From Mycobacterium sp. PSTR-4-N (GTDB lineage: Bacteria; Actinomycetota; Actinomycetes; Mycobacteriales; Mycobacteriaceae): 32,000 nt of DNA. The notes below the pieces were generated by a model that saw only the letters and a list, made by a program, of their open reading frames with translations, made no database searches and had not been told where the DNA came from. The stretch lies in assembly GCF_022348085.1 (NCBI RefSeq), contig NZ_JAKRFN010000007.1, positions 9,943-41,942 of the forward strand, written 5' to 3'. A program made the translations under genes and the position numbers. Positions 184 to 28,045 of the stretch are shown piece by piece (position 1 is the first letter of the stretch; the number at the start of each line of letters is the position of its first letter).

Positions 184-336
184 ATGTCACAGAATTCAGT
201 GACCCACTCGCGGCTCCCGATCGCTGGGCTCATACAGGCGACGACGCTCAGTGGCGCAGACTGGCGAACGGTTTGCCAGCATCTGCCGCTCGCATCCGGA
301 CACGCGGCGGCAATCGGCATGGAGACGTGGCGATGA
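184..336 (+). CDS. Small leader ORF (50 aa), hypothetical; absent from supplied ORF track
   Basis: ATG at 184 is preceded by AAGGAG (173-178) with a 5-nt spacer. Translation: MSQNSVTHSRLPIAGLIQATTLSGADWRTVCQHLPLASGHAAAIGMETWR. The stop TGA (334-336) overlaps ATG 333 of the next gene (ATGA). Hand-counted third-position G+C is about 70% in this frame versus about 50% in the overlapping frame that starts at 120. Confidence 0.35.
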   Translation: MSQNSVTHSRLPIAGLIQATTLSGADWRTVCQHLPLASGHAAAIGMETWR

Positions 337-1706
337 CCGACGACCGACAGGCCCGGTGGGCGGCCACCGACCGCCTCATGGCCTACATCGACGACCCCGT
401 CGACCAGCGCTCCGACGACGTCGAGGAACAGTTCTCCCCCGCCGACGACAACCCGGCTCCCGCCTGGGACGGCGATGAGGACCGCGACGACGAGCGCGGC
501 TACCGACACAGCGCCGGACAGCCGCCAGCACCCCCGGCCCGAGAGGTCACCCACACGGGCCGCGGGGAGGGTTGGGACGAGGTCCCCACGGACGACTATT
601 ACGCGGGCGCGCCGCAGGGCGACGAATACGACGACCAGGCACCCTACGATCACCTCCGCGAGGATCGTGGAGACGGGTACGGCGACGCCTACCCGGACAC
701 AGCCGAAGCGGTCGAGGTGGGCCACCCCCACCTCGACGACACCGACCGCAGCAGCGGCACGGTCGACGTCTTCGACGACAAGCCCGCCCCCGAGGCCGGC
801 CCCGTCGACCTCGACGACGACGTGACCGCAGGACTCGACACCGACAGCGACGAGGACTCCGCTGAACTCGGTCAGAACATCCAATCTCTCATCCCGCCAG
901 CCCGATTCAGCAAGCCACTCGTCCTGGGTTTCGTGGCCGCCGTCGGGGTCGTGGCCATCGGGGGCGCCGCAGCCATGATCGGCATGCAGTCCAGCAGCCC
1001 GTCCCCGGAGGCCGGCGCACCGTCTGGAACGGTCGGCGTCGTCGCACCGCCCCCCGCGCCGCCGGCCGCCGCGCCCGTCGCCGACCCAGCACAGGATGTG
1101 CCGATTCCCTTCCAGGCGTCCTCGGCCTGCCCCCAGGCCGGATCGGGGTCCGCGCAGAACGTCGCCAGCGAGGACCCCACGCGAGCGTGGGTGTGCATGC
1201 GTGATTCCGACGGGCAGGTGATGACCCTGGATCTGGGCAAGCCAATGAAGGTCACCGCCATCGAGCTGACTCCCGGATGGGTCGGCACCGACGCCAGCGG
1301 CGCCGATCAATGGATGTCGCACCGCGTCGTGACACGCGTGCAATGGATCTTGGTCAACGGCGCCGACCGAACGGTCGTTACCCAGGACACCAAGAACGCT
1401 CACGGGCCCGTGCCGGTCGCGATGCCCTCCAACGGCCCCGACCAAGGTGTACTCGCCTCCCAGATTCAGATGGTCATCCTGCAGACCTCGCGCCCGCCGG
1501 CCGACAACCCCGCCCCCACCGCAGGCGGTCCCGGCCCGGCCGGAGGGGGACTGCTCGACGGCATGCTCGGCGCGCCGGTCGGCGAGGGCACCTCCCCAGA
1601 TGCCAGCCCAGACCCCGTCTTCGGAACCAGCGACACCTCCACCGATCCGGTCGACAACACCGTCGCAATCTCGGCGATCCGCGTCCTCGGCCACCCCCCA
1701 CTGTGA
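333..1706 (+). CDS. Membrane-anchored protein (457 aa): acidic disordered N-terminus, one TM helix, Pro/Ala linker, C-terminal discoidin/F5-8 type C-like domain
   Basis: Same frame as track ORF 120..1706. Start moved to ATG 333 (GGAGA 8 nt upstream, ATGA overlap with the leader ORF); the 120-332 part has low GC3. TM segment: LVLGFVAAVGVVAIGGAAAMIGM. The C-terminal block (EDPTRAWVC...MTLDLGKPMKVTAIELTPGW...VAISAIRVLGH) resembles the pattern of galactose-binding-like/discoidin domains. The domain call is from memory of the motif, not a search. Confidence 0.6.
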   Translation: MTDDRQARWAATDRLMAYIDDPVDQRSDDVEEQFSPADDNPAPAWDGDEDRDDERGYRHSAGQPPAPPAREVTHTGRGEGWDEVPTDDYYAGAPQGDEYDDQAPYDHLREDRGDGYGDAYPDTAEAVEVGHPHLDDTDRSSGTVDVFDDKPAPEAGPVDLDDDVTAGLDTDSDEDSAELGQNIQSLIPPARFSKPLVLGFVAAVGVVAIGGAAAMIGMQSSSPSPEAGAPSGTVGVVAPPPAPPAAAPVADPAQDVPIPFQASSACPQAGSGSAQNVASEDPTRAWVCMRDSDGQVMTLDLGKPMKVTAIELTPGWVGTDASGADQWMSHRVVTRVQWILVNGADRTVVTQDTKNAHGPVPVAMPSNGPDQGVLASQIQMVILQTSRPPADNPAPTAGGPGPAGGGLLDGMLGAPVGEGTSPDASPDPVFGTSDTSTDPVDNTVAISAIRVLGHPPL

Positions 1707-1723
1707 GAAAGGCCCACGACCCC

Positions 1724-2704
1724 ATGACGTCCGCACCGAGCTTGCTAACCAACACGTGGCGCCGCCGCATCGACACCAGCGGTTCCACCCTTCGAAAAGT
1801 GCTGCAAACCATCGCCTTCACTGCCTGCACCATCGTCGCCCTGAGCACGATGTGGGGCTGGATCACCGACGAACCCCTCGACATCGACGGGCCCGCAAGG
1901 GCAGCGGTCAACCGCACCGACTACATCGGCGGATACGCCGTCAACTGCGTGCGTCTCCTGCTGACCGTCACCGAAGCCCAACGCTCGGCGCTGAACACCT
2001 GTTGGGCACCCGACGAACTGCGCTCCCTGCCCACCACCCCACCCGTGGTCGTGGACTCCACCGTCATCGCCAAGATCGTGCGGACCGCCGCCTACGACGG
2101 CGTCGAGCAGTGGCAGGTCATCGTGCGTGTCAGCCAGCGCCCCTATCTCAGCGCCACCCCGGAAACCACGCTGCGCCAGATCAACGTCCTCATCAGCAGC
2201 TACGGCCTTCGCGCCTCCGGACTGCTGGCCACCATCAACGACACCGGCAGCGGCGCAACGCTTCCCCTGGCCTACACCGCCTCGCTGCCCGTCGGCGCCC
2301 CCGACGACAAGGGCCGCAACCGACCCACCGGAAACCCCCTGTCCGACACCGTCACCGGATTCCTGGTCAGCTACCTCACCCCCGCCGGCGGATTGGAACG
2401 TTACGTCAGCGCCGACTCGGGCATCAGCGCCGTCAACACCAGCCAACGGGCGCTGACGACTGCCCTGCTGGCCACCCGCACGGTCGACGCCGCCCAACAG
2501 CCAGCAGATGGCAGCACCGTGCAGGTCCTGGCCACGGTCTCAGAACTCACCAACCGCTACGCCCCCCAAACCGAGCAATACCCCCTGACCCTGACGCTGC
2601 GATCGGGCAGCTGGAGTGTCACCCGCATCGACCCCGGACCTCTGCTCGACGGCACCGCGCAACTGACCCCCGTGGCACCCAGCCCCGGTCAACCCACTCG
2701 ATAA
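1724..2704 (+). CDS. TcpC/ConB (VirB8-like) type conjugal-transfer protein candidate (326 aa), N-terminal TM anchor
   Basis: In-frame internal ATG 1724 of track ORF 1277..2704. The upstream part of that ORF is Arg-rich and overlaps the previous gene. GAGAAAGG lies upstream of the ATG. Translation starts MTSAPSLLTNTWRRRIDTSGSTLRKVLQTIAFTACTIVALSTMWGWI (one TM), followed by about 280 aa of extracytoplasmic sequence. Its position directly upstream of the small-TM/VirB4/VirB6-like genes matches ICEBs1 conB-conD-conE-conG order. Confidence 0.5.
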   Translation: MTSAPSLLTNTWRRRIDTSGSTLRKVLQTIAFTACTIVALSTMWGWITDEPLDIDGPARAAVNRTDYIGGYAVNCVRLLLTVTEAQRSALNTCWAPDELRSLPTTPPVVVDSTVIAKIVRTAAYDGVEQWQVIVRVSQRPYLSATPETTLRQINVLISSYGLRASGLLATINDTGSGATLPLAYTASLPVGAPDDKGRNRPTGNPLSDTVTGFLVSYLTPAGGLERYVSADSGISAVNTSQRALTTALLATRTVDAAQQPADGSTVQVLATVSELTNRYAPQTEQYPLTLTLRSGSWSVTRIDPGPLLDGTAQLTPVAPSPGQPTR

Positions 2705-2731
2705 ACCCACCCCACCAGAAAGAGGATCACC

Positions 2732-3049
2732 ATGAACCACCTGCCCGAATTCACCTCCACCCTCGCAGGACTGCCCGCCGACACCCGCATCGTGGCCGTC
2801 GCCGACCTCGTCCAAGGCACCCAGGGCCTCTACACCATGGGGGTAGCGATCCTGGCGATCCTGTTCCTCATCGCCGGGGGCGCTCGCGGCCTCGCCGCCT
2901 TCGGCGGCGGTCGCATCGGCACGGCGATCGGTTGGGTGGCCGCCGGCATCGTCTGCGCTGTCGTCATCGGCAGCGCCTACGCGATCTACGTCTCGACCAA
3001 ACAGACCGTCGACAGCCACACCGGCGTCACCACCGGGCAGTTCGGCTGA
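2732..3049 (+). CDS. Small 2-TM membrane protein (105 aa), VirB3/ConD-like or TrbC/VirB2-like T4SS component candidate
   Basis: ATG 2732 is preceded by AAGAGGA. Two hydrophobic helices: MGVAILAILFLIAGGA and IGWVAAGIVCAVVIGSAYAIYV. The stop lies 2 nt before the VirB4-like start. The call rests on size, topology and position only. Confidence 0.45.
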   Translation: MNHLPEFTSTLAGLPADTRIVAVADLVQGTQGLYTMGVAILAILFLIAGGARGLAAFGGGRIGTAIGWVAAGIVCAVVIGSAYAIYVSTKQTVDSHTGVTTGQFG

Positions 3050-3051
3050 CC

Positions 3052-5937
3052 ATGACTGACAGCGCACAACTCTTCACCGGGGTCCACGACACCCCCGTCT
3101 ACACCAACGTTCTGTTCGACAAGCCGCTGCGGATCTGGGTGGCCGTGCCCGCCGTCGTCGGATCGGTCACCACCATCCTGTTGGCGGTGCTCAACCTCGC
3201 CTCCGGTCACGCGCTGGCCATCCTCATCTGCGGCGCGCTGCTCACCGCAGCGCTGACAGGAATCGGGGCCCTGGTGCCCCGCACCCGCCCCAACATCGCA
3301 TTCCGGCTGCGCGCGTTCACCGCGTCCGTACGTCCGGCTGTCCGCACCAGCTACGACACGCCAATCCTGGCCCGCCCCAACCTCGTCGACAATCTGTGGT
3401 TTGCCGACAACGGCTCGGTCTTCGCCGGCTTCCTGCTGTCCGGGCTCCCCTACCATCTACAGTCATCGCGCCGAAAGACCGCAGTCGCTGACCTGCACAC
3501 CCTGCTCGGCCGGGAACTGCCCGCGGACAGCTGGCTCTACGGCCTCGGAGTAGACCAAGACCAGCGCCAACTCCTGCGAGCCATGGTGCACGGTCACCGC
3601 GACCGCGACGACTGGCTCTACAGCTGCGCCCAGGTCGCCGACCAGCTCGCCGACGCCGAGCCCAAGACGCGGCTGTACTGGCTCATGGTTCCCGTCGACG
3701 CCGGCCGCGCCGGCCACAACGTCGTGGGCCAGGCCACCAAGCTCAAGGATTGGTTCGCCGGACGCGACAAGGACTCCGACTCCTCGCTGCACGCCTACAT
3801 CGAGCTGGGCCACGACATCGCCAACTCGCTGCCCCCGGAGTTCTCCCCCACGCCGGTCACCGCGGCCATTTCGGCATGGCTCTGGCAGCACACCACCTGG
3901 CTGGGCACCTTCACCGACCCCCTGCCGCGACCGACCGCCGGCGGGTCCATCACCGCCGACCAGCTCCCCGCCGCGGCCTTCGATGAAGGAGACCAGCAGC
4001 ACAAACCCCGCCGACCCAGCATCTTCAACGCGCTGCCCTCATGGAAGAAGTACGTTCGCGTCTCGGCCACAGGGCCGCACAGCGTGATCGCAGCAGACAG
4101 CTATCAGGCCGTGCTGCCCGTGGTCGACGCCCCCGAAGGCGGCATCGTCTTCCCCGGCTCCGAATTCCTCTCCGCACTCGACGATCTCGACACCGGCGCG
4201 GTGTTCGACTTCGCCATCAACCTCACCGCCCGGCCCCGCGAAATGGAGTTCCGCCGCAACGACCGCGCACGCGGCAACATCGACGACCAGTACGACCACC
4301 GCGGCGACGTTCGCAACGGCCTGACCGAATTGCGAGCCACCGAGCGCAAGATCGCCGAATACAACAGGCTGCTGTCGGCCAACATCGACGAGCAACCCCT
4401 CTCGGCCGCCTTCTTCATCCACGTCGGTGCCGCCGACCCCCGCACGCTCGACCACAGCATCAAACGGCTGCGCGAGGAGATGACGCAGTCCGGCCAGATC
4501 GTCATCCGGCACTACCGCGGCGCCAACACCCGATTGTGGTCAGCCTTCAACCCCGGTGTGGCTCAGCACAAGAGCGCCGTCGACCAATTCGCTCACGCCA
4601 CCACCGCCTCCAAGTGGTCACGATTCGTGCCCCTGATTTCCTCGCAGCTCGGCAACGCCACCGGGATGCTGCTCGGCTTTAACAAGAGCAACGCCAATAA
4701 CTCCGCGGTGCTCCTCGACCTACCCGGCACCGCCCGCCGCAACCACAACCCCTGCCTGATCTGCGCCGGGGCACCCGGTTACGGCAAGTCCTACACCTCC
4801 AAGAAGATCGTGCGCGCCGAACTGCAGCGCGGTGCACAAGCATTCATCGTCGAACCCGACGACTATGGCGAATGGGCCACCGCCCTGGCCGACGTCCCCA
4901 ACAAGGCCGTCATCGACATGGCCGGTGGTGACTTCGGCTGCGACGCGCTGCGCATCTTCCCTGAACGTGTCGCCGGCTCCTACTGGCTCGACTACATGAT
5001 CCCCATGCTCGGACTCGACGTACGTAGCGTCGCGGTCGGGCGGCTGCGCACCCTGCTAACCCCCGCCGCCCGCGACGCGCTGGGGCTGAGCAGCACCGCA
5101 GCGCTCATGCGCTACATCCGCGACATCCAAGCCCCCCTCGGCTCCGCCGAAGACACCCGATCACCCCAAGTCGCCCAACTGGCCGAAGATCTTCGTCCCG
5201 TCCTGCTCGCGTTGGAGTCCTGGGCCACCTACGAATTCACCCAAGCCATCTTCGACGACACACTGCCCATCCCCGACCTCGCCGCCCTGGACGTGACGAT
5301 TTGGCAGACCGGCAGCCTCGACCTGCCCGACGCCGACGAAGTCGCCAACCCCCACCTCTACGCCGCCCTCAGCGACCGTCAACGCGCCTCCATCGCCATC
5401 TACGGCATGCTGGTGCGCCTCGCGCGGGTCACCTTCTTCAACAACACCAACCGATTCGGATTGATCGTGCTCGAAGAGGCAGGCCCCCTGCTCAATTCAC
5501 GAACCGGAGCCCGCGACGCACACCTGATCAGCCGCCGCGCCCGCAAGCACTACACCGGCATGCTCATCATCACCCAGAACCCAATCAAGGACCTCGCGCT
5601 CATGGGCGACGAATTCATCACCCAACAGATCATCGTGCCCTTCGAGAAGGAGGGCATCGCGCGAGCCGTCGCCGCCAGCGCGGGACTGCCCCTCGACGAA
5701 TATCCCGAGTTTCAAGACTTCTTCCTGGCCGCCGCCGGAGCCGAGGAGATGCGCGACCCCACGGCATTCGACGACGACCACACCGGACCGTCGACGACCC
5801 CGGACCGCGGCAGCCTGCAAGGACGTGCCTTCTTCATCGACGAGTTCCGCCGCCTGGGTGCGATTCAAATCGCGCGCGAGCCCAACGACATCCTGCACCG
5901 CGCCTACGACACCACACCCGACCAAGGGGCTGCCTGA
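3052..5937 (+). CDS. VirB4/ConE/TcpF-like T4SS ATPase (961 aa) with N-terminal TM hairpin
   Basis: Internal ATG 3052 of track ORF 1447..5937; the first 535 codons of that ORF are Arg/Pro-rich shadow over three other genes. N-terminal helices: IWVAVPAVVGSVTTILLAVLNL and ALAILICGALLTAALTGIGALV. Walker A GAPGYGKSYTSKK. Walker B-like FGLIVLEEAG. Downstream MLIITQNPIKDL (TQ motif). Confidence 0.8.
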   Translation: MTDSAQLFTGVHDTPVYTNVLFDKPLRIWVAVPAVVGSVTTILLAVLNLASGHALAILICGALLTAALTGIGALVPRTRPNIAFRLRAFTASVRPAVRTSYDTPILARPNLVDNLWFADNGSVFAGFLLSGLPYHLQSSRRKTAVADLHTLLGRELPADSWLYGLGVDQDQRQLLRAMVHGHRDRDDWLYSCAQVADQLADAEPKTRLYWLMVPVDAGRAGHNVVGQATKLKDWFAGRDKDSDSSLHAYIELGHDIANSLPPEFSPTPVTAAISAWLWQHTTWLGTFTDPLPRPTAGGSITADQLPAAAFDEGDQQHKPRRPSIFNALPSWKKYVRVSATGPHSVIAADSYQAVLPVVDAPEGGIVFPGSEFLSALDDLDTGAVFDFAINLTARPREMEFRRNDRARGNIDDQYDHRGDVRNGLTELRATERKIAEYNRLLSANIDEQPLSAAFFIHVGAADPRTLDHSIKRLREEMTQSGQIVIRHYRGANTRLWSAFNPGVAQHKSAVDQFAHATTASKWSRFVPLISSQLGNATGMLLGFNKSNANNSAVLLDLPGTARRNHNPCLICAGAPGYGKSYTSKKIVRAELQRGAQAFIVEPDDYGEWATALADVPNKAVIDMAGGDFGCDALRIFPERVAGSYWLDYMIPMLGLDVRSVAVGRLRTLLTPAARDALGLSSTAALMRYIRDIQAPLGSAEDTRSPQVAQLAEDLRPVLLALESWATYEFTQAIFDDTLPIPDLAALDVTIWQTGSLDLPDADEVANPHLYAALSDRQRASIAIYGMLVRLARVTFFNNTNRFGLIVLEEAGPLLNSRTGARDAHLISRRARKHYTGMLIITQNPIKDLALMGDEFITQQIIVPFEKEGIARAVAASAGLPLDEYPEFQDFFLAAAGAEEMRDPTAFDDDHTGPSTTPDRGSLQGRAFFIDEFRRLGAIQIAREPNDILHRAYDTTPDQGAA

Positions 5938-7991
5938 TGATCACCGCCGCGCCGGCGACCACCTCGAGACTGCGCGACGTCGCCGCAGAACGTCTGGGCT
6001 ACGAGCTCGCCGTACACCCGCGTCTGCGCCGACTCCTGACGTTCTGGACGATGACCCACGTCCTGGCGCTCTGGGCGGTGATCGCCGCGCCCCGGGCCGC
6101 GGCCTCCACCATGTCAGCGGCGCTCAACTGGACCGGGATCACCGACACCGACGGCGTGCCCGTCGGCGCCTACTTCCTGTCCACCGTGGACACCATGGAG
6201 GCCCTCACCGAATCCGGCCCCGACGTCAGCGTCGTCGACCCCGGCTCCTGGGTCCGCTGGGGAGCGCACGCGATCACCACCGGCCTCACCCACGAGACCG
6301 TGGCGAGCTGGGTGCAAGCGCAGGCGTCGTGCTACATCTTCCTGCTCGCCGCGGTGCTGTGGCTGCTCAAGTTCGCCATGTCGAGCACCTGGTTGTATTG
6401 GCTCGCTGCGTGGTTCCGACCAATCCTGGAAGCGCTTCGCCAGATGCTCGTCGACCTCCACTTCTTTCAGATCTGCCTGGCACTGGGCATCGGCGTCGGC
6501 GCCTTCCACATCTTTTGGCACGGCCGCCGCGGTCATGGCGCCGCCATCATCCTCACCGCATTCGCCATCGGCATGCTGGGACTGTGGCTCACCCGCGACC
6601 CGCTGGGTGAGCTGACCGGCAACGACGGACTGCTCAACCAGGCCAGGGCACTAGGTTTCAGCGTCGCCCAAGCCGCCACCAACAACGGCCCCATCGCCGT
6701 CGGCGGGACGACCGGCCAGCTCGGACACCTCACCAGTGTCCTGGCCGACGCGTTGGTGCGGGCGCCTCTGCAAATATGGAATTTCGGCACCACCGTCGAC
6801 ACCATCGGCAGCTGTGGTCACGCATGGTCGGCGGCGATCATGAGCGGTGTGCGGGATGCTCCCGCCCACGCCATGACCTCCTGCGGAGCGCCCCAAGCTC
6901 TGCGCTACGCGCAAGGCATCGACGGCACGGTGTTCGCGCTCGGCATCGGATTCTGCTTGCTGGGAATGGTTTTCGCATTCTTCGTGCTCTATGTCACCTA
7001 CAGCTACATCATGGTCTGCGGTGCAGCGCTGCTCAACGCCGTAATGGCGATCTTCGCCGCCGGGCCGGCCATGATTCACGGAGCTCCACGCCGCCGCGCA
7101 CGGCGACGCCTCGAGCAATTCTTCCGTCACGCGTTCCTGGTATTTGTCTACGTTCTCTACACCTGCGTCGCCGCCCTCCTCATCCTGAAAACCGTTGCAC
7201 CAGGCGGGCTGGCGTCCCAAGTAGGCATGACTAGCCCCGTCGCCATGCTCGTCCTCGTCGCCCTCTGGTCGGCAGTGGCCACCGGCGTCTTTTGGTACCT
7301 CAAGCGCGAAATACTCCACGACAACACCCGCCAGGACCTCGTTCAATCCGTGCGCCAGGCCGTGCACCTCGGCAACCAGGGATACCGACGCGGCCAGAGC
7401 CGCATCGGGCAAGGCAAGAATATCGCCGACAAGACCCGCGAACGGTTCTCCCGAGCATCCGACGAAACTGGAGAAAAACCAGGGTCGACGCTGACGCAAG
7501 CGCCGGTGGCTGGCCGGTCCCCCAGCGGCTCATCCGCCCGCCCCGGGCGCCTCACCCCCGCCGCGAGGTCCGGCGCGGGTGCATCGAGCAGATCCACCGC
7601 CGCTACGCGCATCGGCGGTGCAGGTGCTGGTGCCACCACGGCCGGTAGCGCCTCTGCCGCCGGCGGCGCCGCCGGGGCGGCCGAGGCCGGCGCAATGGTC
7701 CTCGCCCCGGAAGTGGCACTCCCCGCGGCCGCTGCAGGTGCCGCCGCCCACAGGATGAAAAGCAACCATCAGTCGTCCTCCGGCCGAGAAAGAGCAACCC
7801 AGGACCAGACGCCGCGCGAACGCCGCGCCGACGCCCTGCAGCCACCCCGACAGCGCGCACCGGGCACGCCACCGCCGCCGTCGGGTTTCGGGCCCGTAGC
7901 GACCCGCGGAGACCGCAATGCCGCCCCGTCCCGTGATCCCGTTCGCGCCCCTGATGAGCCTCCCGCACCCGTCCCCGGGCGAACACGCTGA
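5937..7991 (+). CDS. VirB6/ConG/TcpH-like polytopic membrane protein (684 aa) with long disordered C-terminal tail
   Basis: ATG 5937 overlaps the VirB4-like stop (TGATG). At least 7 hydrophobic helices, e.g. CYIFLLAAVLWLLKFAM, FFQICLALGIGVGAFHIFW, AAIILTAFAIGMLGLWL, GIGFCLLGMVFAFFVLYVTYSYIMVCGAALL, FLVFVYVLYTCVAALLILK and VAMLVLVALWSAVATGVFWYL. The last 220 aa or so are rich in Ala/Gly/Ser/Pro/Arg. The family call rests on topology and its position after VirB4. Confidence 0.55.
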   Translation: MITAAPATTSRLRDVAAERLGYELAVHPRLRRLLTFWTMTHVLALWAVIAAPRAAASTMSAALNWTGITDTDGVPVGAYFLSTVDTMEALTESGPDVSVVDPGSWVRWGAHAITTGLTHETVASWVQAQASCYIFLLAAVLWLLKFAMSSTWLYWLAAWFRPILEALRQMLVDLHFFQICLALGIGVGAFHIFWHGRRGHGAAIILTAFAIGMLGLWLTRDPLGELTGNDGLLNQARALGFSVAQAATNNGPIAVGGTTGQLGHLTSVLADALVRAPLQIWNFGTTVDTIGSCGHAWSAAIMSGVRDAPAHAMTSCGAPQALRYAQGIDGTVFALGIGFCLLGMVFAFFVLYVTYSYIMVCGAALLNAVMAIFAAGPAMIHGAPRRRARRRLEQFFRHAFLVFVYVLYTCVAALLILKTVAPGGLASQVGMTSPVAMLVLVALWSAVATGVFWYLKREILHDNTRQDLVQSVRQAVHLGNQGYRRGQSRIGQGKNIADKTRERFSRASDETGEKPGSTLTQAPVAGRSPSGSSARPGRLTPAARSGAGASSRSTAATRIGGAGAGATTAGSASAAGGAAGAAEAGAMVLAPEVALPAAAAGAAAHRMKSNHQSSSGRERATQDQTPRERRADALQPPRQRAPGTPPPPSGFGPVATRGDRNAAPSRDPVRAPDEPPAPVPGRTR

Positions 7992-8308
7992 TGACGACAC
8001 CGAAGCGGCCCGTGATGCACCCTGCGGCACTCTCGTCCAACCGGGCCTTGGCCGCCGCGCGTGCCGATCTGCACGAAGCCCTGCGCGCTGACGACGAGCA
8101 CCGGCGTCAGCAGTACGCGCGCTCCGCACGCGACAGCGCCGCCGAAGTCCTCTGGGACGCGTCAAGCACCCGGCTCGAGTGTGAATACGCCATCTATTAC
8201 CTCGGCGACGCGGAGGCCATGATCGCGGCGACAGCCTCGAACAAGGCAATTAACCCCAAGCGGATTGGCATGACCGGTAGGCCACGGATGAACGCGTGTC
8301 GCGCTTAG
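7991..8308 (+). CDS. Hypothetical protein (105 aa), last gene of plus-strand operon
   Basis: ATG 7991 overlaps the upstream TGA (TGATG), suggesting translational coupling. No recognisable motif. Confidence 0.4.
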   Translation: MTTPKRPVMHPAALSSNRALAAARADLHEALRADDEHRRQQYARSARDSAAEVLWDASSTRLECEYAIYYLGDAEAMIAATASNKAINPKRIGMTGRPRMNACRA

Positions 8309-8342
8309 GCAAGGGCCGGAGTATCCGGCTCGCGGGCGGTCG

Positions 8343-8371
8343 ACCCAGCGCTGGGTTTGCGCCCCCAGCGC
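8343..8371. terminator. Candidate bidirectional terminator in convergent intergenic gap
   Basis: Perfect 14-bp palindrome ACCCAGCGCTGGGT (8343-8356) followed by TT. An alternative 8-bp stem pairs GCGCTGGG (8348-8355) with CCCAGCGC (8364-8371). It sits between stop 8306-8308 (+) and stop 8378-8380 (-). The U-tract is weak. Confidence 0.3.
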
Positions 8372-8377
8372 ATCGTG

Positions 8378-8938
8378 CTAGTCGTCGCTGGCGACAATCA
8401 ACGCCAGCTCACACGACCGTCGGTCAATGGTGACGAACTCGTGGAAGCCGCTCTCACTTCCCACTGTCTGACCCCAATCGTGTTGCGCCGTGGCGCGAAT
8501 GTCGGGGAGCTGATAGATCGTGGTCGCACGCCGGAACCGCTGATGCACCTCGCGACGGGTGGCCTCCAGATCGGCATCATGCCAGCGGGCATAGGGGCCG
8601 TCCCAGGTCCGGATCGTGCGCTCGGCGAATGTGTCGATCTCTTCTGCAGCGGCATCGGGCGTGGCCTTGACGAAGGTGTTCGGTGAGATCAACGAAAGCC
8701 AGTAGGGGCCATGCCAATACGGCTCGGCTTCCTGCTGGCCGACGCCCCCCACGCCGGCGTAGGAATCTCGGTAGCAAAGGTGGGCGACCAGCAGTGCCAG
8801 CGCGGTGTCGTCGTCGACGTCGCGCCGCAGGGTGAACAATTTGACGCTGATCCATTGGTAGGTTCTGGACGGATTGATAAAGATTTCTCGCTGATACAGC
8901 ATTTGGTCGCCGCTGTCGGCGACCTTGCCTAGCGTCAT
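8378..8938 (-). CDS. Hypothetical soluble protein (186 aa) immediately downstream of eccA
   Basis: Internal ATG 8938 of track ORF 8378..9364; the upstream part of that ORF is Arg-rich and overlaps the eccA 3' end. An alternative ATG at 8989 would add 17 aa. Translation starts MTLGKVADSGDQMLYQREIFINPSRTYQW. No TM helix and no motif I recognise. Confidence 0.5.
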   Translation of the reverse strand: MTLGKVADSGDQMLYQREIFINPSRTYQWISVKLFTLRRDVDDDTALALLVAHLCYRDSYAGVGGVGQQEAEPYWHGPYWLSLISPNTFVKATPDAAAEEIDTFAERTIRTWDGPYARWHDADLEATRREVHQRFRRATTIYQLPDIRATAQHDWGQTVGSESGFHEFVTIDRRSCELALIVASDD

Positions 8939-9000
8939 GATCCGTCCGTGTCGTCTACGCCAGAAACCATGTAGGCATGCACGTGTCATCGACCGTCGAG

Positions 9001-10842: not shown

Positions 10843-10894
10843 TGCCGTTGTGCCCCTTGCCTAGTCAAAACGTCTCTGGTGTCGACCCGTTCGT

Positions 10895-17260: not shown

Positions 17261-17376
17261 GAAAACCACCCCAATGGCTTGAAGAACAACTATTGATGCA
17301 ATCGTAGGGCCGCCGAATACCGGTTAACTACGCCCAAAGAAGAAAGTTCGGTACAAAATTGCCAGGCGCTCAGTAA

Positions 17377-18303: not shown

Positions 18304-18511
18304 CGCCAGCGGGTCCTTCTCCGGTGTGTCGGGTTGGTCGACGGGTGTGCGTCCTGTGTGGGTCAAACCGAGAGCGGCGGCACCCTCGGTGAGGGTGCCG
18401 CCGCAAGAATTCGCTCGGAGGACTTGCCGAAACGAACTGCGCCGCAGAGCCGATGGCGAAGGGGCCGCCACGCGGCACGGCGATTAGGTGCGCACCTTCG
18501 CCAGTCGGTCC

Positions 18512-18802
18512 TTAGACCGACCAGGTGCCGCCGACACCGCTGTCGGTGTGCTGGGTGTTGTGGCTGGCCGTGCCGACCTTGCCGCCGTGCTCGTCAAGCT
18601 GCTCGAAGATGACCCGGAAGTTGCGGTTGAGCTCATTGACGAACTCCTGGTAGCCGGTGCTACCCACGCCGCCCCACATTTCGGCCGACTCCTGCAGATC
18701 CTTGAGGATCGCCTGGTGCTCGGCTTCGAGCTGACCTGCCTGGCTCCTCAGCAGGCTCGAGTGGGCTTCGACGTCGCCGTAGCTATAGCTCTGTACTCCC
18801 AT
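18512..18802 (-). CDS. WXG100 protein, EsxA-like member of the pair (96 aa)
   Basis: AAGGAA RBS. WxG motif in EMWGGVGS at mid-length. About 100-aa helical hairpin size. Second gene of the esx pair. Confidence 0.85.
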   Translation of the reverse strand: MGVQSYSYGDVEAHSSLLRSQAGQLEAEHQAILKDLQESAEMWGGVGSTGYQEFVNELNRNFRVIFEQLDEHGGKVGTASHNTQHTDSGVGGTWSV

Positions 18803-18851
18803 GATGAGTTTCCTTGTCTGTGTACGTGTTTGGAGGTGGATGGGGTGGTGA

Positions 18852-19142
18852 TCAGGCCTTGAGGGATGCGGCGTTGGCGTGTTCCTGCTGCTCGTAGGTG
18901 TCGGCCGAGGTGCGCAGGTTGTCGCTGACGAAGTGCATCTGGTTCTCGATGTTGCGGAAGGCCCGGTTCATCTCCTCCATGGTCCCCAGGGAGGCCATGT
19001 TGGCATCGCCCTTCCATCCCGCACCCGAGATGCCCTCGGCCGAGGCGTACGCCTTCTGCGCCTCGACGTGAATGTTGGTGGCGTGGTTGGAGAAGCGGCC
19101 GGAGTAGTCGCGCATCGCGGCCGGGTCGGTCATGAAAGACAT
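18852..19142 (-). CDS. WXG100 protein, EsxB-like member of the pair (96 aa)
   Basis: AGGAG RBS 8 nt upstream. WxG motif in GAGWKGDA. C-terminal YxxxE secretion motif (DTYEQQE). Confidence 0.85.
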   Translation of the reverse strand: MSFMTDPAAMRDYSGRFSNHATNIHVEAQKAYASAEGISGAGWKGDANMASLGTMEEMNRAFRNIENQMHFVSDNLRTSADTYEQQEHANAASLKA

Positions 19143-19207
19143 TCGTTTGCTCCTAGATCGTGTCGTGTAATGCTGGCCATTTGCGTGGACGGGTCAATCG
19201 TGTCCCT

Positions 19208-19245
19208 TTGGCGCTGCGTAAGCCATGCGCCAAGAAATATTCTTG
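19208..19245 (-). promoter_or_regulatory. Two adjacent inverted repeats in the ppe-esx spacer
   Basis: TTGGCGC (19208-19214) pairs with GCGCCAA (19227-19233) around a 12-nt loop. CAAGAA (19231-19236) pairs with TTCTTG (19240-19245) around a 3-nt spacer. The 146-bp spacer is AT-richer than its flanks. Confidence 0.25.
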
Positions 19246-19288
19246 AATTGAGTGCTCGACCCCCTTCGGTATCTGCCCGCATTTTCCG

Positions 19289-20473
19289 TTAGCGCGCCCG
19301 TGGCAGCACGCGGACCGGCGCGCCGTAGGACGGGCCGTTACTCGAGGAACTGTCTTTGCCCTGCATCGCGGCCATCGGGGCCGCCCCGCCGGCGCCCCCG
19401 CCCACGCTGGTCGTGGAGGGGGCCGCACCCGTGTTGGTGCCGCCCGTCGCGGAAATCGGTGTCGCACCCGCCGCGCCGGAGGGGGCGCCCGCTGCCCAGG
19501 TCGCGGGGACCGACAATCCGCCTACGCTGCGGGCGGCGCCCATGCCGGCCGAGAGGGCACCCATGCCCCCGCCGCCGAAGCCGCCGCCACCGAGGCCCCC
19601 CGCCGCTCCCATGGCCGAGGTCGCCGACGTCAAAGCCCCAGCGCCACCGACGCCCCCCATGGTGGGGTTCATCATGCTCATGAACGGCGACAGCAGCGAC
19701 TGAAAACCACCCATGGCCTGCATCGGGTTGCCCATGCCGCCCATGAGTGGCTGCGCGAGGCCCTGTAACGCTTGCGGCACCGCGCTCATGAATTGAGGGG
19801 CCATCGACATGATCGAACTGGCGTTTCCGCCACCCATGCTGGCCGTCGACTGCCCAGCGGTCGCGGCGTTCTGGCCGGCCTGCCCCGCTGCGGTACCGCC
19901 TGCCTGGGCTACCGCGGCCGCTTGGCTGGCGAAACCTCCGGGGTTGACTGTCGGCGCGGGCGCCATGAATGGCACCAGCATCCCGGTGATGCCGGCTGCG
20001 TCGGCGCTGAACCCATACATCGTGGTGGCGTCCTGAGTCCACATCTCGTCGTAGGCCGCCACGCACGCAGCGATCGCGCCGGAGTTGACCCCCATGAAGT
20101 TCGTCGAGATCAGCGTCTCGAGAAGGTTGCGGTTCGCCTCGATGACTGGCGGCGGTACAGACCCTGCGTGGGCAGCCTCGATGGCGAGGGCCGCCTGCTC
20201 CGCGGCGATCGCGGTCTGCTGGGCTTGAGTCGCCGCTTGAAACAGCCACCGCACGTTTTCCGTGGCGCCGGCGGCCATCATGGTCGACGACGGTCCTTGA
20301 AACCCGCCTGCCAGCAGCGCCATTACAGCGCTGTGCAGCGCTGCGGCGTTTGAGCCGAGGTTGGCCGCAAGGGCTTGCCACGCGGCGGCAGCTGCGGTCA
20401 GGGGCGCCGACTGCGGGCCGGCGTAGGCCCGAGCGGAGTTGATCTCGGGCGGTAGGGCTCCGTATTCAACCAC
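19289..20473 (-). CDS. PPE family protein (394 aa), SVP-type Gly/Ala/Met-rich C-terminus
   Basis: Start reassigned to GTG 20473 with AAAGGAG upstream. The N-terminus VVEYGALPPEINSARAYAGPQSAPL is the canonical PPE signature. The C-terminus has GGLSVPATWA. Confidence 0.9.
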   Translation of the reverse strand: MVEYGALPPEINSARAYAGPQSAPLTAAAAAWQALAANLGSNAAALHSAVMALLAGGFQGPSSTMMAAGATENVRWLFQAATQAQQTAIAAEQAALAIEAAHAGSVPPPVIEANRNLLETLISTNFMGVNSGAIAACVAAYDEMWTQDATTMYGFSADAAGITGMLVPFMAPAPTVNPGGFASQAAAVAQAGGTAAGQAGQNAATAGQSTASMGGGNASSIMSMAPQFMSAVPQALQGLAQPLMGGMGNPMQAMGGFQSLLSPFMSMMNPTMGGVGGAGALTSATSAMGAAGGLGGGGFGGGGMGALSAGMGAARSVGGLSVPATWAAGAPSGAAGATPISATGGTNTGAAPSTTSVGGGAGGAAPMAAMQGKDSSSSNGPSYGAPVRVLPRAR

Positions 20474-20647
20474 GAAGTCACAACTCCTTTTCGCACGAGG
20501 GATGGGTCTGGCCCGGTGGCGGCGCCGCAGGAGACCCGGCCGGGCGGACCGCCGGCGAGTCGATGTCAACGACGGGGTGCCGTCGGCGCGAAGCGTTCAT
20601 CTCCAAACGTGCTGAACGATGATCCACGACGGGCCCGAGACGAACCG

Positions 20648-20944
20648 TCAGAGCGTTGCGGCGACGTTGAAGGCCTCGGTCGCGGCGTAACTTGCACCGG
20701 AGGTACCCATGGCGCTGGCAAACATCCCATGCCAGGCCGAGGCCATGGCGGCCATGGACTGGTACAGCGAGCCGTGGGTGCCGAAGGCCGCCGAGAGAAG
20801 CATGGCAGTTTCGTTGGCCTGGCCGGGCGCGACTGCGGTCGTGGGCGCTGCGGCGGCAGCGTTTCCGCTGGTGAAGGCAGATGTCAGCGCGGTCAGGGTG
20901 CCGGCTGTGCCACCCATTTCCAACGGATCAGCTGTAAGGAACAT
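20648..20944 (-). CDS. PE family protein (98 aa)
   Basis: ATG 20944 with GAGGGG upstream. Translation MFLTADPLEMGGTAGTLTAL...AAPTTAVAP...SYAATEAFNVAATL. It has PE-domain length and helix pattern and a YxxxE motif (YAATE). It lies directly upstream of ppe. Confidence 0.8.
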   Translation of the reverse strand: MFLTADPLEMGGTAGTLTALTSAFTSGNAAAAAPTTAVAPGQANETAMLLSAAFGTHGSLYQSMAAMASAWHGMFASAMGTSGASYAATEAFNVAATL

Positions 20945-20971
20945 TCGTTATGACCCCTCTGTTGTGCCGAT

Positions 20972-20997
20972 AATGCCAATACGAGTGTATAGGCATT
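20972..20997 (-). promoter_or_regulatory. 11-bp imperfect inverted repeat between eccC stop and pe start
   Basis: AATGCCAATAC (20972-20982), loop GAGT, GTATAGGCATT (20987-20997). 10 of 11 positions are complementary. AT-rich for this locus. It lies 27 nt upstream of the pe ATG. Confidence 0.3.
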
Positions 20998-21021
20998 CAG
21001 GTGTGGTCGCGGTGCGCCAAA

Positions 21022-24000: not shown

Positions 24001-25221
24001 GCCGATCGCGAAGAACTGGAAACCCTCCTCTGAATCAGGCGCCCACGTGCCGTCCCGCGGTACCGCGTCGATCACGCCGTCATCCTTGAGGCGCAGCGTC
24101 CGCACGCCCCGATGGTCCTGACAGGCCGGCACGCCACCTTGCACGTCGAAGAACGTCCACCCCTGCACGCCAGTCGAGGTCATCACCGAATACCAGCCCC
24201 CGGGCGCGACGTCGCTGACCACGATCGTGTGGGGCATCGGCGCGACGGGGTCGCGGCTGGCCGCGTGGCGGGCGACGAACGCGCCGCCGCGGCGGACCGC
24301 ATCAGTGAACTGCCGATCAGCGAATTCGGCGACCGATGTATACACCATGCGTGCCGGACCCGCACCGTCGTCCTGGTGCGGATTGCCGTTGTGCGGCAAC
24401 CACTTCACCCAGTCCCATTCAGCGACATCGTCGGTGACGACGACCAGCCTCAAATGATCCGGGCCGTGGGAGAACACCAACTGCGCGATGATCGCGCGCA
24501 TCAGCCCCAGCGCTTTGTCGCGATCGCCGTCAATGCGATACCCCGGCTCCACCAACAACGAGATGAGCGCCGGTGTGCCGTAGGCAACGCTCTGGTAGCG
24601 GACGAACTCCTGCAACGCCTTGCCCGTCGCCGGTTCGAGCTCCACTTCGGTAGGCATGTCGTCGGGCTCACTGAAGGTCACGGCCCCGCCCTCCACCAGG
24701 GAGGTCATGCCGACCCCCACCCGGGCGACGCCGAACCAGGTGTCCTTACCGTTGGGGTTGCGTTCCCACATCCGCGGGCCGCCCGCCTGGGCGAGCAGCG
24801 TGTCGGCCGGAGGGTGGTACCACCGGTAGTTTCCGTCGAGTTTGTCGGCGGCATCAGAGACCCGGTCACGCATCTCGTCGAGGACGAGCAGGAAACGAGC
24901 CCGCATCGCGTCGAGCTTGCCGCGACTCATCTGCTGATTGCCGCCGCTGAATCGGCCCGAGAACAGCATTGCGCCGATTCCGAGAATGCTGAACACCGGG
25001 AAAATCGCCCCGACACCGTTGAAGGTGCGTGCGCCCGAGGCGAACGAGACCGCGACCATGCCGACCACCAGGCCGATAACCAGGATGCCGACGACGATGA
25101 GCCATGGCGACTTTCCCTCGGGGGGCGGGACCTTAAGAGGCGTCAGGAGTTTGATCGGTTGCGGCTTGAGGTCACTTCCCGGCGGTGGGGTGGGCTTCGG
25201 CCGGACGAAACCTTGCTTCAC
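21022..25221 (-). CDS. eccC: EccC, FtsK/SpoIIIE-family T7SS ATPase, single polypeptide (1399 aa)
   Basis: GTG 25221 overlaps the eccB stop (GTGA). Two N-terminal TM helices. Three P-loops: GTTGSGKTTAIRT, GVRSSGKTTTLQT and GREDCGRTNALS. Walker B-like LLVVLDEFKE, VYLVIDNYAAL and IFLIVDDADRL. Confidence 0.95.
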   Translation of the reverse strand: MKQGFVRPKPTPPPGSDLKPQPIKLLTPLKVPPPEGKSPWLIVVGILVIGLVVGMVAVSFASGARTFNGVGAIFPVFSILGIGAMLFSGRFSGGNQQMSRGKLDAMRARFLLVLDEMRDRVSDAADKLDGNYRWYHPPADTLLAQAGGPRMWERNPNGKDTWFGVARVGVGMTSLVEGGAVTFSEPDDMPTEVELEPATGKALQEFVRYQSVAYGTPALISLLVEPGYRIDGDRDKALGLMRAIIAQLVFSHGPDHLRLVVVTDDVAEWDWVKWLPHNGNPHQDDGAGPARMVYTSVAEFADRQFTDAVRRGGAFVARHAASRDPVAPMPHTIVVSDVAPGGWYSVMTSTGVQGWTFFDVQGGVPACQDHRGVRTLRLKDDGVIDAVPRDGTWAPDSEEGFQFFAIGDHLDRFEAEQLAQSIARSRIAEPYEDIAEDLGDFRRPRDILAYYGVKDPAAIDFEALWGPHRDINAAANLRIPYGVRADNGELVFVDMKDMNQGGDGPHGVMSGTTGSGKTTAIRTVLLAAILGHPPENLQMILADCKGGAGVKPFEGTPHVPHIITDLEDDQVLMDRFITAMWGEIARRKQVCNSVGADDAYEYNQIRSERSLRGEHLEPLPRLLVVLDEFKEAFRIKPDLPEVLDQIGRQGRSLWVHQLLASQDIDSRAEKLLENVGYRLVLRQNTSASASAAGVPQAVNLPREVGVGYMRTGSADELTRFRAESLWRDYRRPSPDNDDVIEATSTSDRYLEPQLFTTSWVEIPEHLINHAAAQPAETVEEQEDEDDALRKPKVGPVILDQLRNYGFKPQVLWQPPLDVPHTIDDIVNAHLGHRWDENYAATPNLVFPVGIVDRPYKQDQHPLLVDTRADGANQLVVGVRSSGKTTTLQTIICAAAMTHTPEQVQFYCLALSSTALETIAGLPHVGGVAGILDEDGIRRTISEMLELLERRQRSFPACGISSVQDLRDRKFGGAPGAVPDDPFGDVYLVIDNYAALTAEASTIRNKDLLSAQIQKIVGEGSSFGIHVIVSVARDIELPPRMRGSWPQRIELKLQGPEDAKLLRGKLTDAVPSGKPGRGMVAQNYVRLGAEEEGLHTQIARPALRGTPTAQFKSDSVVEAVRRAAARYRPAPRVRALPSHVTLADLQARAQRDYHTGMAWAVDERDELVGLERDSPFLIITGREDCGRTNALSAIMREIARTYAPGASTATPDPGDPRPRAQVWLVNPRRELLRVLGKDYLERFTYRNDEMGPWAAELNRILTARLPEAGLDVDTSLAQRWSGPEIFLIVDDADRLPPGYDAPLRELVPSAHAATDVGLRVVYARRFGGWAGSDRADPLLGAMKQANAPLLVMDSDGEEGFVRGRWKGHPMPPGRGFFVSTGESGRYVQIGLDTSPESVAN

Positions 25222-26765
25222 TTCGGCTGCTCCAATGCTCCAGGGTTCTGACCCGCCGGCAGTGTGTTGTAACGCAATTGGGCATCAGACCGCGCCAACG
25301 TCGGGCCGGCGACGAACAACCGCAACACCGACCATGGGGCCGGTTTCGGTTCGGTGTTGAGCCCCAACGCCGTCAAGGTCTGATTGTCTCGCTCCACCCC
25401 GAACCGAATTCCGAAGTCCGAGAGCCACCACACCGACTCCTTCGTCGACGCGGTCTGGCCATTGCCGGTGCTGACGACGTAGTTGGCGTAATCGGGGGCG
25501 AAGTAGATCTGGTCGGCCACCTGACCACCGGTGTCGGCCGACGTCACCAGCTTGACGATGTGGCTGGTTTTGTCCGTGGGGACCGGGATGCTTGCTCCCG
25601 ATACCACCGAGGTCGTACTGCGGTCCTCGCCGCTGCCCTTCTGCCACCACCAGCAGGTGGCCGGGTTGGCTTGCGTGTCGACCACCTTGAGGGGCTCATC
25701 GGGGTAGATCGACGTGTCGATCACATTGACCGACGGCAGTTCTGCCAGCTTGGAGCCGGCGATGACTGCGATCGCGCCCGAAGGATTCCCGCCGGCGTTC
25801 TGCAGGATCTGGGCCACGATTGGGGAGACGGTCTGCATGCCGGAGAGCAGCACCACCGAGTACGTGGTGTTGCCTTCGACCTGTGGAGTGGAGATCACTG
25901 TTCCCACCGGCCCGGGGGCGCCGGGGAACGGAGCGGGAACGCCCAGACCGGCGATGGCCGGGACCGTCAGCGGCGGCGCCACCGGGATGGCGTTCAACAG
26001 TGCCTGGCTGATCGGTCGGGCCGACGCGAGGTCCTCGGCGGTGACCCCCAACGCCAGCAGAACCGGCCGCTGGCTGGCATCCACCAGCGAGCGGCGGCCA
26101 TCGCGGATCAGCCACACGTCGGTGCCGAAGCGCAGCAGGACACCATCGTCTTTGTCCAGGACGCGTCGGCGATCTGACAGATCGGGTTGTCCGTCGATGA
26201 CCGTCACCGTGACCGGTTCGGGTGCGCCGGCACCGAACGCCTTGGTGACCGCATCGCAGACCAGCCACGACGAACCTGCTGGCGAGGTGGCGTTCATGGA
26301 ATCCGGAGCCCCGGGGATACCCACCCACACACCGTGCGGTCGGGAGTCGATCTCGCTGCGCCGCACCGGAACCGGGTCCAACGCCTGACCGGCGATCAGA
26401 CGCGCCGAGGACAGGTTGAGCGCCGGGTACAACACGTTGTTGACATTGACGAACAGGTCGTCGGTCTTGTTGTCGGCGATGATCTTGGAGTCGCTGATCG
26501 AACCGGCGGGCCGGATGAACGACCAGAACAGCGCACCAAGGCAGATGACGATGACCAGGGAGAGGCCGGCGAGGATGGCCATCCATTCCCGCCGCCCGGG
26601 CTCGGCTTCCATCCGCACCTGCCGGCGGGTCATCCCCAGTGCAGCCCGCCGCGCCATGAACTGGTGAGCAGTGACCTGGACGCGCGTCGCGTACCCCAGG
26701 CCGCGGCCCAGCCGTCGTCTGGCGACCTCTTTGTCCTCGACGGCGCTGCCTCGTTCGCCTGCCAT
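25218..26765 (-). CDS. eccB: EccB, ESX membrane component (515 aa)
   Basis: ATG 26765 with GGGAGCGGAG upstream. The N-terminus ATRVQVTAHQFMARRAALGMTRRQVRME precedes a single TM (WMAILAGLSLVIVICLGALFWSF) and a large extracytoplasmic domain. It is the first ecc gene. Confidence 0.9.
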   Translation of the reverse strand: MAGERGSAVEDKEVARRRLGRGLGYATRVQVTAHQFMARRAALGMTRRQVRMEAEPGRREWMAILAGLSLVIVICLGALFWSFIRPAGSISDSKIIADNKTDDLFVNVNNVLYPALNLSSARLIAGQALDPVPVRRSEIDSRPHGVWVGIPGAPDSMNATSPAGSSWLVCDAVTKAFGAGAPEPVTVTVIDGQPDLSDRRRVLDKDDGVLLRFGTDVWLIRDGRRSLVDASQRPVLLALGVTAEDLASARPISQALLNAIPVAPPLTVPAIAGLGVPAPFPGAPGPVGTVISTPQVEGNTTYSVVLLSGMQTVSPIVAQILQNAGGNPSGAIAVIAGSKLAELPSVNVIDTSIYPDEPLKVVDTQANPATCWWWQKGSGEDRSTTSVVSGASIPVPTDKTSHIVKLVTSADTGGQVADQIYFAPDYANYVVSTGNGQTASTKESVWWLSDFGIRFGVERDNQTLTALGLNTEPKPAPWSVLRLFVAGPTLARSDAQLRYNTLPAGQNPGALEQPK

Positions 26766-27980: not shown

Positions 27981-28045
27981 CCGCTCAAACTAACCGGCCG
28001 ACAACCCCACAACCACGCCCCAAGACAACCAAAAACAGACAACCA

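Follow-up and report, generated by a model that had tools for sequence, protein, structure and literature searches.

Gene content of the window

The stretch analysed here, 32,000 nt of Mycobacterium sp. PSTR-4-N (contig NZ_JAKRFN010000007.1, positions 9,943 to 41,942; hereafter 'the window'), carries a tightly packed plus-strand operon of six genes resembling a type IV secretion system (T4SS; ~333–8308), which converges on a complete minus-strand ESX locus, i.e. a type VII secretion system (T7SS). Scanning the long open reading frames (ORFs) of this high-GC window (60–72%) with Pfam and NCBIfam placed the whole ESX core—eccA, eccB, eccC, eccD, eccE, mycP, espG, PE, PPE, and an esx pair—above the Pfam cut-offs, and likewise assigned plus-strand genes to T4SS families, namely TcpC (PF12642) and AAA_10 (Table 1). 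A first-pass annotation, made from the letters alone, had described a VirB4-like operon (184–8308) converging on an ecc/mycP/esx/pe/ppe/espG set (26765–8378). Both sets were recovered on these strands and near these coordinates, with family E-values far beyond chance. Three boundaries changed: the ESX set, complete as described, stops at eccA (9001) and not at 8378; the ORF proposed to start the operon at 184 is doubtful, the first well-supported gene starting at 333; and the short convergent gap, described as 70 bp, measures 69 bp between stop codons. In addition, an NlpC/P60 gene directly upstream of eccB is part of the module, yet lies outside the 184–26765 span originally delimited. Neither an Rfam search at gathering thresholds nor a tRNA scan returned anything in the 32 kb.

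Table 1. Annotated features of the window, ordered by position (aa, amino acids; TM, transmembrane; HTH, helix-turn-helix; RBS, ribosome-binding site).
Feature	Coordinates	Strand	Evidence or remarks
HTH (Xre-type) regulator, first 27 codons	1–83	–	tblastn with M. rufum HTH protein, 96% identity at 3–83
ORF of 50 aa, doubtful leader	184–336	+	RBS GAAGGAG at 172–178; ATGA overlap with next gene
457-aa protein, first operon gene	333–1706	+	Acidic disordered N-terminus; one TM helix (196–214); weakly discoidin/glycan-binding-like outer domain
TcpC-family (VirB8-like) conjugal transfer protein	1724–2704	+	PF12642 TpcC 29.2 bits, cut-off 27; start ATG at 1724
105-aa protein	2732–3049	+	Two TM helices (33–51, 69–87); directly upstream of VirB4
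VirB4-like conjugation ATPase, 961 aa	3052–5937	+	AAA_10 50.7 bits, cut-off 27.5; Walker A GAPGYGKS at residue 573
684-aa polytopic membrane protein	5937–7991	+	At least 7 TM helices; long disordered Ala/Gly/Pro-rich tail
105-aa soluble protein, last operon gene	7991–8308	+	ATGA overlap with upstream gene; poorly conserved
Convergent intergenic gap, 69 bp	8309–8377	.	GC-rich 8-bp hairpin at 8348–8371
Cargo gene, 186 aa	8378–8938	–	In variable slot between the systems; outside ESX core; absent from M. rufum plasmid
eccA, cytosolic AAA+ ATPase	9001–10842	–	T7SS_EccA1_N 5.6e-73; AAA 8e-16; Walker A GPPGTGKT
eccE, membrane component	10895–12490	–	PF11203 EccE 5.5e-15; two TM helices
mycP, mycosin subtilisin-like protease	12487–14154	–	Peptidase_S8 2.2e-32
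eccD, polytopic channel component	14151–15743	–	EccD 3.4e-30; YukD 6.6e-10; 11 TM segments
MinD/ParA-family (EspI/Rv3888c-like) gene, between espG and eccD	15740–17260	–	CbiA 5e-06; Ssd/CpaE_hom_Actino 1.8e-14; MinD/ParA models
espG, PE/PPE chaperone	17377–18303	–	ESX-1_EspG 1.3e-26
EsxA/EsxN-like WXG100	18512–18802	–	WXG100 1.1e-11; WGG at residue 43
EsxB-like WXG100	18852–19142	–	WXG100 2.1e-17; WKG at 43; C-terminal YxxxE secretion motif YEQQE at 83
PPE, PPE-SVP type	19289–20473	–	PPE 4.7e-47; PPE-SVP 1.3e-09
PE protein	20648–20944	–	PE 1.1e-16; YxxxE motif YAATE at residue 86
eccC, single ORF, FtsK/SpoIIIE-type ATPase, 1399 aa	21022–25221	–	FtsK_SpoIIIE 1.7e-61; Walker A at 511 and 877
eccB, membrane component	25218–26765	–	PF05108 1.2e-138
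NlpC/P60 (C40) peptidoglycan hydrolase, head of ESX locus	26943–27980	–	NLPC_P60 7.1e-22; RipC-like 1.3e-25
PE-like N-terminus and PPE domain in one chain	28901–30706	–	Best PDB match EspB (7P0Z, E 3e-4)

Identity to a circular plasmid and collinearity with pRAW

Megablast against PLSDB retrieved the circular 264-kb plasmid of Mycolicibacterium rufum JCM 16372 (NZ_CP092428.2; MOBF relaxase type) at 97% query coverage, with 99.4% identity over positions 9014–32000 of the window, 95.5% over 1–8152, and no match for 8153–9013. The best other nucleotide matches were short metagenome or SRA contigs (99.95–99.99% over parts of the right half), and a contig from a metagenome-assembled genome (MAG) was 96.5% identical over the left part. 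The edge of the window cuts the HTH gene that heads a divergent unit encoding the HTH regulator, a hypothetical 224-aa protein, and VirD4. On the M. rufum plasmid, this unit continues just left of the window-equivalent region (HTH_3 regulator; 224-aa protein; VirD4, PF02534 66 bits, TraG-D_C), followed ~22 kb further left by a MobF relaxase that is 64% identical to MobF of pRAW.

The plasmid pRAW of M. marinum E11—family members of which are pMK12478, pMAH135, and pMyong1—is conjugative, moves only among slow growers, and loses transfer upon transposon insertion in either eccC or the virB4-like gene (Ummels et al. 2014, PMC4173767). Its gene content, order, and orientation are the same as in the window. 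A C40/NlpC peptidase gene precedes eccB–eccC–PE–PPE–esx–esx–espG–MinD/ParA–eccD–mycP–eccE–eccA and a cargo segment, and the convergent side consists, outward from the junction, of genes for an 86-aa protein, a 675-aa membrane protein, the VirB4-like ATPase, a 94-aa protein, TcpC, and a 420-aa protein, with a divergent VirD4 unit and MobF beyond. By tblastn, the proteins of the window from NlpC/P60 to the 457-aa protein were matched in pRAW in the same order with 41–65% identity (EccA 62%, EccE 46%, MycP 65%, EccB 58%, EccC 52%, NlpC/P60 41%), save for the cargo and the last 105-aa gene. Five of the six T4SS-like operon genes were thus collinear at 41–58%, namely those for the 457-aa protein (41%), TcpC (43%), the 105-aa protein with two TM helices (55%, to the 94-aa protein of pRAW), VirB4 (58%), and the 684-aa protein (52%, to the 675-aa protein), each in the same position, and the last small gene (7991–8308) was unmatched.

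The two loci differ in that two NlpC/P60 genes are reported for pRAW compared to one in the window, that the slot at the convergence point holds a Pycsar system in pRAW and a 186-aa orphan here, and that pRAW is restricted to slow growers whereas the named isolate hosts of the window clade are mostly fast-growing Mycolicibacterium. In the survey of Dumas et al. (2016), ESX and T4SS loci (VirD4, TcpC, VirB4) were contiguous in all ESX plasmids, eccA lay at the downstream end, NLP/P60 genes occurred in most ESX-P loci, plasmid-borne ESX loci formed synteny blocks with these T4SS genes, and ESX-P cluster 1 was sister to ESX-5 (PMC4779608). An NlpC/P60 gene at the locus head is a hallmark extra gene of such plasmid ESX loci (PMC4173767, PMC4779608). 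ESX-P cluster 1 was defined on slow-grower plasmids, whereas the window clade lies at similar distances from pRAW (58%) and from chromosomal ESX-5 (54–56%).

A probable plasmid transfer core and its alternatives

The identity of 95.5–99.4% to a circular plasmid, the VirD4 and MobF genes of that plasmid, and the collinearity with pRAW all support the first-pass proposal of a plasmid-borne conjugation machine. We consider it highly likely that the block forms the transfer core of a large mycobacterial plasmid of the pRAW type, from a lineage found in fast-growing Mycolicibacterium. The pairing of T4SS-like and ESX machines for conjugation is a known design, of which the block is a sequence-diverged version in a little-studied soil lineage of fast growers, and no new kind of system. 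In essence, GenBank already contains it in annotated form, as the M. rufum plasmid. A housekeeping chromosomal ESX locus was rejected because of the plasmid identity and the linkage to T4SS genes.

By homology to pRAW, the MobF relaxase of a donor would nick the origin of transfer (oriT), and VirD4 would pass the complex of relaxase and single-stranded DNA to an inner-membrane channel powered by VirB4 and presumably built from TcpC together with the polytopic protein and the small TM proteins. The NlpC/P60 enzyme would open the peptidoglycan, and the ESX machine (EccB/C/D/E–MycP with EccA and EspG) would secrete Esx and PE/PPE substrates, which may be required for traversing or remodelling the mycomembrane or for setting up the mating contact.

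Several points weigh against the block being such a transfer core. No retrieved record is identical to the window, and within the 32 kb themselves there is neither a relaxase or coupling protein nor an oriT or a replication/partition gene. MOB-suite types NZ_CP092428.2, NZ_CP092363.2, and NZ_HG917973.1, the experimentally conjugative pRAW among them, as 'mobilizable' and not as conjugative, perhaps since its mating-pair-formation models miss T4SS-like and T7SS transfer genes. As pRAW stays out of fast growers, function in fast-growing hosts would be an extrapolation; conjugation dependent on virB4 and eccC is known for pRAW only and would extend to the present lineage by homology; and how the T7SS contributes to moving DNA has no mechanistic explanation even for pRAW. 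Finally, a VirB6/TcpH-like channel subunit is represented by a plausible but unproven candidate, the 684-aa protein, whose modelled structure gave a statistically weak match (see below).

Among the alternatives, the one that survives best, though we regard it as improbable, is that the two systems are neighbours yet functionally independent, the T4SS-like genes moving DNA and the ESX machine secreting effectors for competition or host interaction while being dispensable for transfer in this lineage. ESX systems elsewhere do have non-conjugative roles, and the step in identity to M. rufum at the junction (95.5% vs 99.4%) shows the halves to be able to recombine separately. However, linkage and orientation have been kept across clades that are only ~58% identical, insertion in eccC abolishes conjugation of pRAW (PMC4173767), and every ESX plasmid surveyed has the two loci side by side (PMC4779608).

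Slightly less probable still is chromosomal integration of the block in the source organism, either as an integrative and conjugative element or as a decaying plasmid relic. No retrieved record is identical to the window, a pRAW-like T4SS operon with VirD4 occurs on a 4.99-Mb M. interjectum contig, and Dumas et al. derive ESX-2 as well as ESX-5 of the chromosome from such plasmid loci (PMC4779608). In contrast, all 22 genes are intact, synteny with the circular plasmid extends over 32 kb with the exception of the cargo slot, the closest relatives of known replicon are plasmids, and the window contains no integrase and no tRNA, nor did a long-repeat search find repeats resembling attachment (att) sites or insertion sequences within it.

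ESX type

The locus had been labelled 'ESX-2-type' in the first-pass annotation, for its gene order and single-ORF eccC, and hence taken as a less-studied ESX-2 version of the T4SS pairing; its sequence, however, follows ESX-5 and ESX-P1. Since eccC2 to eccC5 are all single ORFs, an undivided eccC is not diagnostic of ESX-2. The order eccB–eccC–PE–PPE–esx–esx–espG–parA-like–eccD–mycP–eccE–eccA does equal that of ESX-2, but is not diagnostic either, because ESX-P1 shares it; indeed, Ummels et al. described ESX-P1 as having an ESX-2-like gene order and an ESX-5-like sequence (PMC4173767). The ESX-2 locus of M. tuberculosis (Rv3884c–Rv3895c) further resembles the window in that a MinD/ParA-like gene separates espG from eccD and that eccC is a single ORF, but is chromosomal, found in slow growers, devoid of an adjacent T4SS, and distant in sequence.

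Compared with proteins in the PDB, EccC, EccB, and EspG scored far higher against ESX-5 than against other types. EccC reached 1575 bits with EccC5, and its ATPase3 domain 248 bits with M. tuberculosis EccC5 (6J18) versus 72 with EccC2 (6JD5), 36 with EccCb1, and 33 with EccC3, the ESX-2 comparison resting on this solved EccC2 ATPase3 domain and on published trees. The same profile was obtained for pRAW EccC (1580 bits overall; ATPase3 237 vs 59). EccB scored 600 bits with EccB5, 290 with EccB3, and 160 with EccB1, and EspG 215 bits with EspG5 versus 23 with EspG3. Across all PLSDB plasmids, EccB was 100% identical to that of M. rufum, 85% to that of M. crocinum, 58–62% to the pRAW family, and at most 38% to every other plasmid ESX type; identity to chromosomal EccB5 from named and long-contig sources was 54–58%.

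When 119 EccB sequences were placed in a neighbour-joining tree with pMYCSM01 as the root, a window clade, a separate pRAW clade, and a chromosomal ESX-5 clade were resolved, each with 100% bootstrap support, and the plasmid-type clades joined against ESX-5 with 60% only. Judged by these comparisons, the locus is a separate lineage inside the ESX-5/ESX-P1 superclade and outside ESX-2. A fast-grower contig, from M. aromaticivorans, has been grouped with ESX-P cluster 1 before (Dumas et al., PMC4779608). An ESX-2-type system, be it a plasmid or relic version of chromosomal ESX-2 or a member of the plasmid sister clusters ESX-P2/P3, is largely refuted by the EccC, EspG, and EccB scores and very hard to sustain, despite the shared gene order—already described for ESX-P1—and despite the fast-grower ESX-P clusters 2 and 3 branching at the root of ESX-2 (PMC4779608). 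More generally, gene order is not enough to assign an ESX type, as ESX-P1-like loci resemble ESX-2.

Chromosomal ESX-5 of M. tuberculosis and M. xenopi provides the closest solved relatives (EccB5/EccC5/EspG5; PDB 7NP7, 7B9F, 4KXR) and, like the window, has eccA at its downstream end. It lacks a MinD/ParA gene and has an expanded PE/PPE set, whereas the probably plasmid-borne locus of the window has MinD/ParA and NlpC/P60 genes, a single PE/PPE pair, and the link to T4SS genes. Membership in chromosomal ESX-5 was rejected on the MinD/ParA gene, the single PE/PPE pair, and the EccB tree, in which the ESX-5 clade excludes the window (100% bootstrap).

The T4SS-like operon

The VirB4-like ATPase has two N-terminal TM helices according to a TM scan, and its NCBIfam matches were solely to VirB4-type models (VirB4_plasma, TcpF, TraC, CD1110), all far under their equivalog cut-offs; its sole PDB match was VirB4 (4AG5, E 1e-3). 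A PDB sequence search with the TcpC-family protein returned no match. In the 457-aa protein, F5_F8_type_C (20.8 bits) and NADase_discoid (23.8 bits) both fell under the cut-off.

No VirB3 or VirB6 homologues were found in pRAW by Ummels et al. (PMC4173767). In the window, the 105-aa protein with two TM helices may fill the usual VirB3/VirB2-type slot, as its position and topology suggest. For the TM region of the 684-aa protein, an AlphaFold2 (AF2) model (pLDDT 76, pTM 0.69) had as its best meaningful Foldseek match TrwI/VirB6 of R388 (8rt9_F; probability 0.99, E 0.084, TM-score 0.30/0.44). A Pfam scan for TrbL/VirB6 over 36 homologues of this protein gave no match, and the UniRef name of one homologue begins with 'TrbL/VirB6'. 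The last operon gene encodes a protein that is 51–64% identical in relatives and had no family match in the Pfam and NCBIfam scans. At the opposite end, the 184–336 ORF is kept only in the two closest relatives, with an amino-acid identity of 78–80% below the nucleotide identity of ~93%. Coding constraint is thus probably absent.

Outside mycobacteria, the Tcp locus of Clostridium perfringens pCW3 (TcpA, TcpC, TcpF, TcpH, TcpG) likewise combines a TcpC-family protein, a VirB4/TcpF-type ATPase, an adjoining polytopic protein, a coupling protein, and a peptidoglycan hydrolase. Matches to it are weak (28 bits for the TcpF model, with a cut-off of 1100), and the present lineage differs in having a VirD4/TraG-type coupling protein, an NlpC/P60-type hydrolase sited in the ESX locus and, by analogy with pRAW, an additional need for a T7SS.

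A variable cargo slot at the convergence point

Between the two convergent systems lies a slot that differs among related loci. In the window, the slot (8153–9013) has the 186-aa orphan, in the M. rufum plasmid (locus L001) a DUF732 gene, and in M. vinylchloridicum, M. rhodesiae JS60, Mycolicibacterium sp. J2, and M. crocinum genes for a 341–343-aa and a 95-aa protein of no assigned family. A cytidine-deaminase-like protein is encoded in Mycobacterium sp. AT1, PycTM and PycC of Pycsar in pRAW, an ApeA-like HEPN protein in M. aquaticum, and a type I restriction-modification system (hsdMSR) in M. arosiense; in the uncultured bin UC10, the slot is empty. Slot coordinates in related loci were 20137–20752 (L001), 15200–16600 (L013), 15170–16140 (L018), 14670–18880 (L025), 2920–10400 (L029), 25810–28800 (L030), and 37630–39260 (L032). 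Among these cargoes, several are genes of anti-phage defence. Toward the junction, identity to M. rufum drops from both sides, with a step across the slot from 95.5% to 99.4%; the convergence point is hence a recombination breakpoint, and the slot carries exchangeable cargo.

The 186-aa cargo protein of the window has ~113 mycobacterial homologues of 170–185 aa, encoded on chromosomes as well as plasmids and all annotated as hypothetical, with W29, K33, HGPY76–79, and a C-terminal ASDD as invariants. It matched nothing in Pfam, NCBIfam, or PADLOC, and its AF2 model (pLDDT 77) gave a weak Maf1-like fold match of high root-mean-square deviation (E 1.6e-3), which we do not interpret. In the 69-bp gap, the hairpin is formed by the inverted repeat GCGCTGGG/CCCAGCGC and might serve as a bidirectional terminator. 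A promoter/terminator consensus scan of the junction found no canonical terminator in the gap and matches at chance level only; its single terminator-like match, a number expected by chance, lay at 8622–8637 inside the cargo ORF.

Distribution among relatives and significance

A search with the VirB4-like protein through genomes, one for each species, identified 18 loci. Seven of these, in six fast-growing or environmental mycobacteria, had a VirB4 83–87% identical to that of the window and came from M. vinylchloridicum, M. rhodesiae JS60, Mycolicibacterium sp. J2, Mycobacterium sp. AT1, an uncultured pyrene-degrader bin, and a Mycobacterium sp. MAG. In MAG contig L012, VirB4 is 98% identical and the contig stops inside the membrane-protein gene. 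Convergent eccA–eccE–mycP–eccD follow right after the operon in six of the seven close loci, the MAG contig stopping before that point, and the M. crocinum plasmid has the convergent eccA–T4SS arrangement likewise. The divergent unit of HTH regulator, hypothetical protein, and VirD4 accompanies all 18 loci and is also found in M. rufum and pRAW. Most of the hosts that are named isolates belong to fast-growing Mycolicibacterium (rufum, crocinum, vinylchloridicum, rhodesiae JS60).

Tentatively, and with more doubt than confidence, we suggest that the block may represent a distinct subtype of the pRAW-like module adapted to fast growers, with an EccB about equidistant from ESX-P1 and ESX-5, a full minimal T4SS set including VirB6- and VirB3-like parts, and a convergence point that serves as a dedicated, recombination-prone cargo slot, often for anti-phage genes. 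It is unexplained why plasmids need a T4SS-like as well as a T7SS machine to conjugate across the mycobacterial envelope, and pRAW, the sole experimental model, works only in slow growers. A diverged, fully syntenic version in fast-growing Mycolicibacterium shows that the design is older and wider than the pRAW family. A fast-growing host could ease genetics, and if the module is transfer-proficient, it would offer a tractable model in which to study the need for a T7SS in mycobacterial plasmid conjugation. Of main value are the fast-grower host range of the locus, its candidates for the missing parts of the T4SS, and the slot for cargo where the two systems converge.

Additional features of the locus and its relatives

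The M. interjectum locus (L026; NZ_LT546237.1, 994238–1017541 on the 4.99-Mb contig) has a VirD4 89% identical to that of pRAW along with a pRAW-like T4SS operon. Its VirB4 match appears interrupted or extended, residues 328–956 alone aligning within a 3.3-kb match. This locus could reflect chromosomal integration or a scaffolding artefact.

Within the ESX locus, the mycosin has long poly-proline runs (PPPPPPPPPPP) inserted in its protease domain. In the MinD/ParA-like protein, the N-terminal half (~250 aa) is disordered, and the Walker A motif, VRGGVGKT, is deviant, with Arg replacing the signature Lys.

A 710-bp segment (27340–28049), which spans two-thirds of the NlpC/P60 gene from the 5′ end together with the region upstream of it, has a second copy on the M. 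rufum plasmid (L001, 46884–47593; 99.4% identical), where it sits in a 339-aa paralogue whose C-terminus differs. At the edge of this segment (~27330–27395), several metagenome contigs end. Just upstream of the NlpC/P60 gene, the protein that joins a PE-like N-terminus to a PPE domain is a candidate substrate resembling EspB. Both here and in metagenome contig L008, its reading frame continues into the downstream 97-aa ORF to give a fusion, as the TAG stop of M. rufum is CCG in the window.

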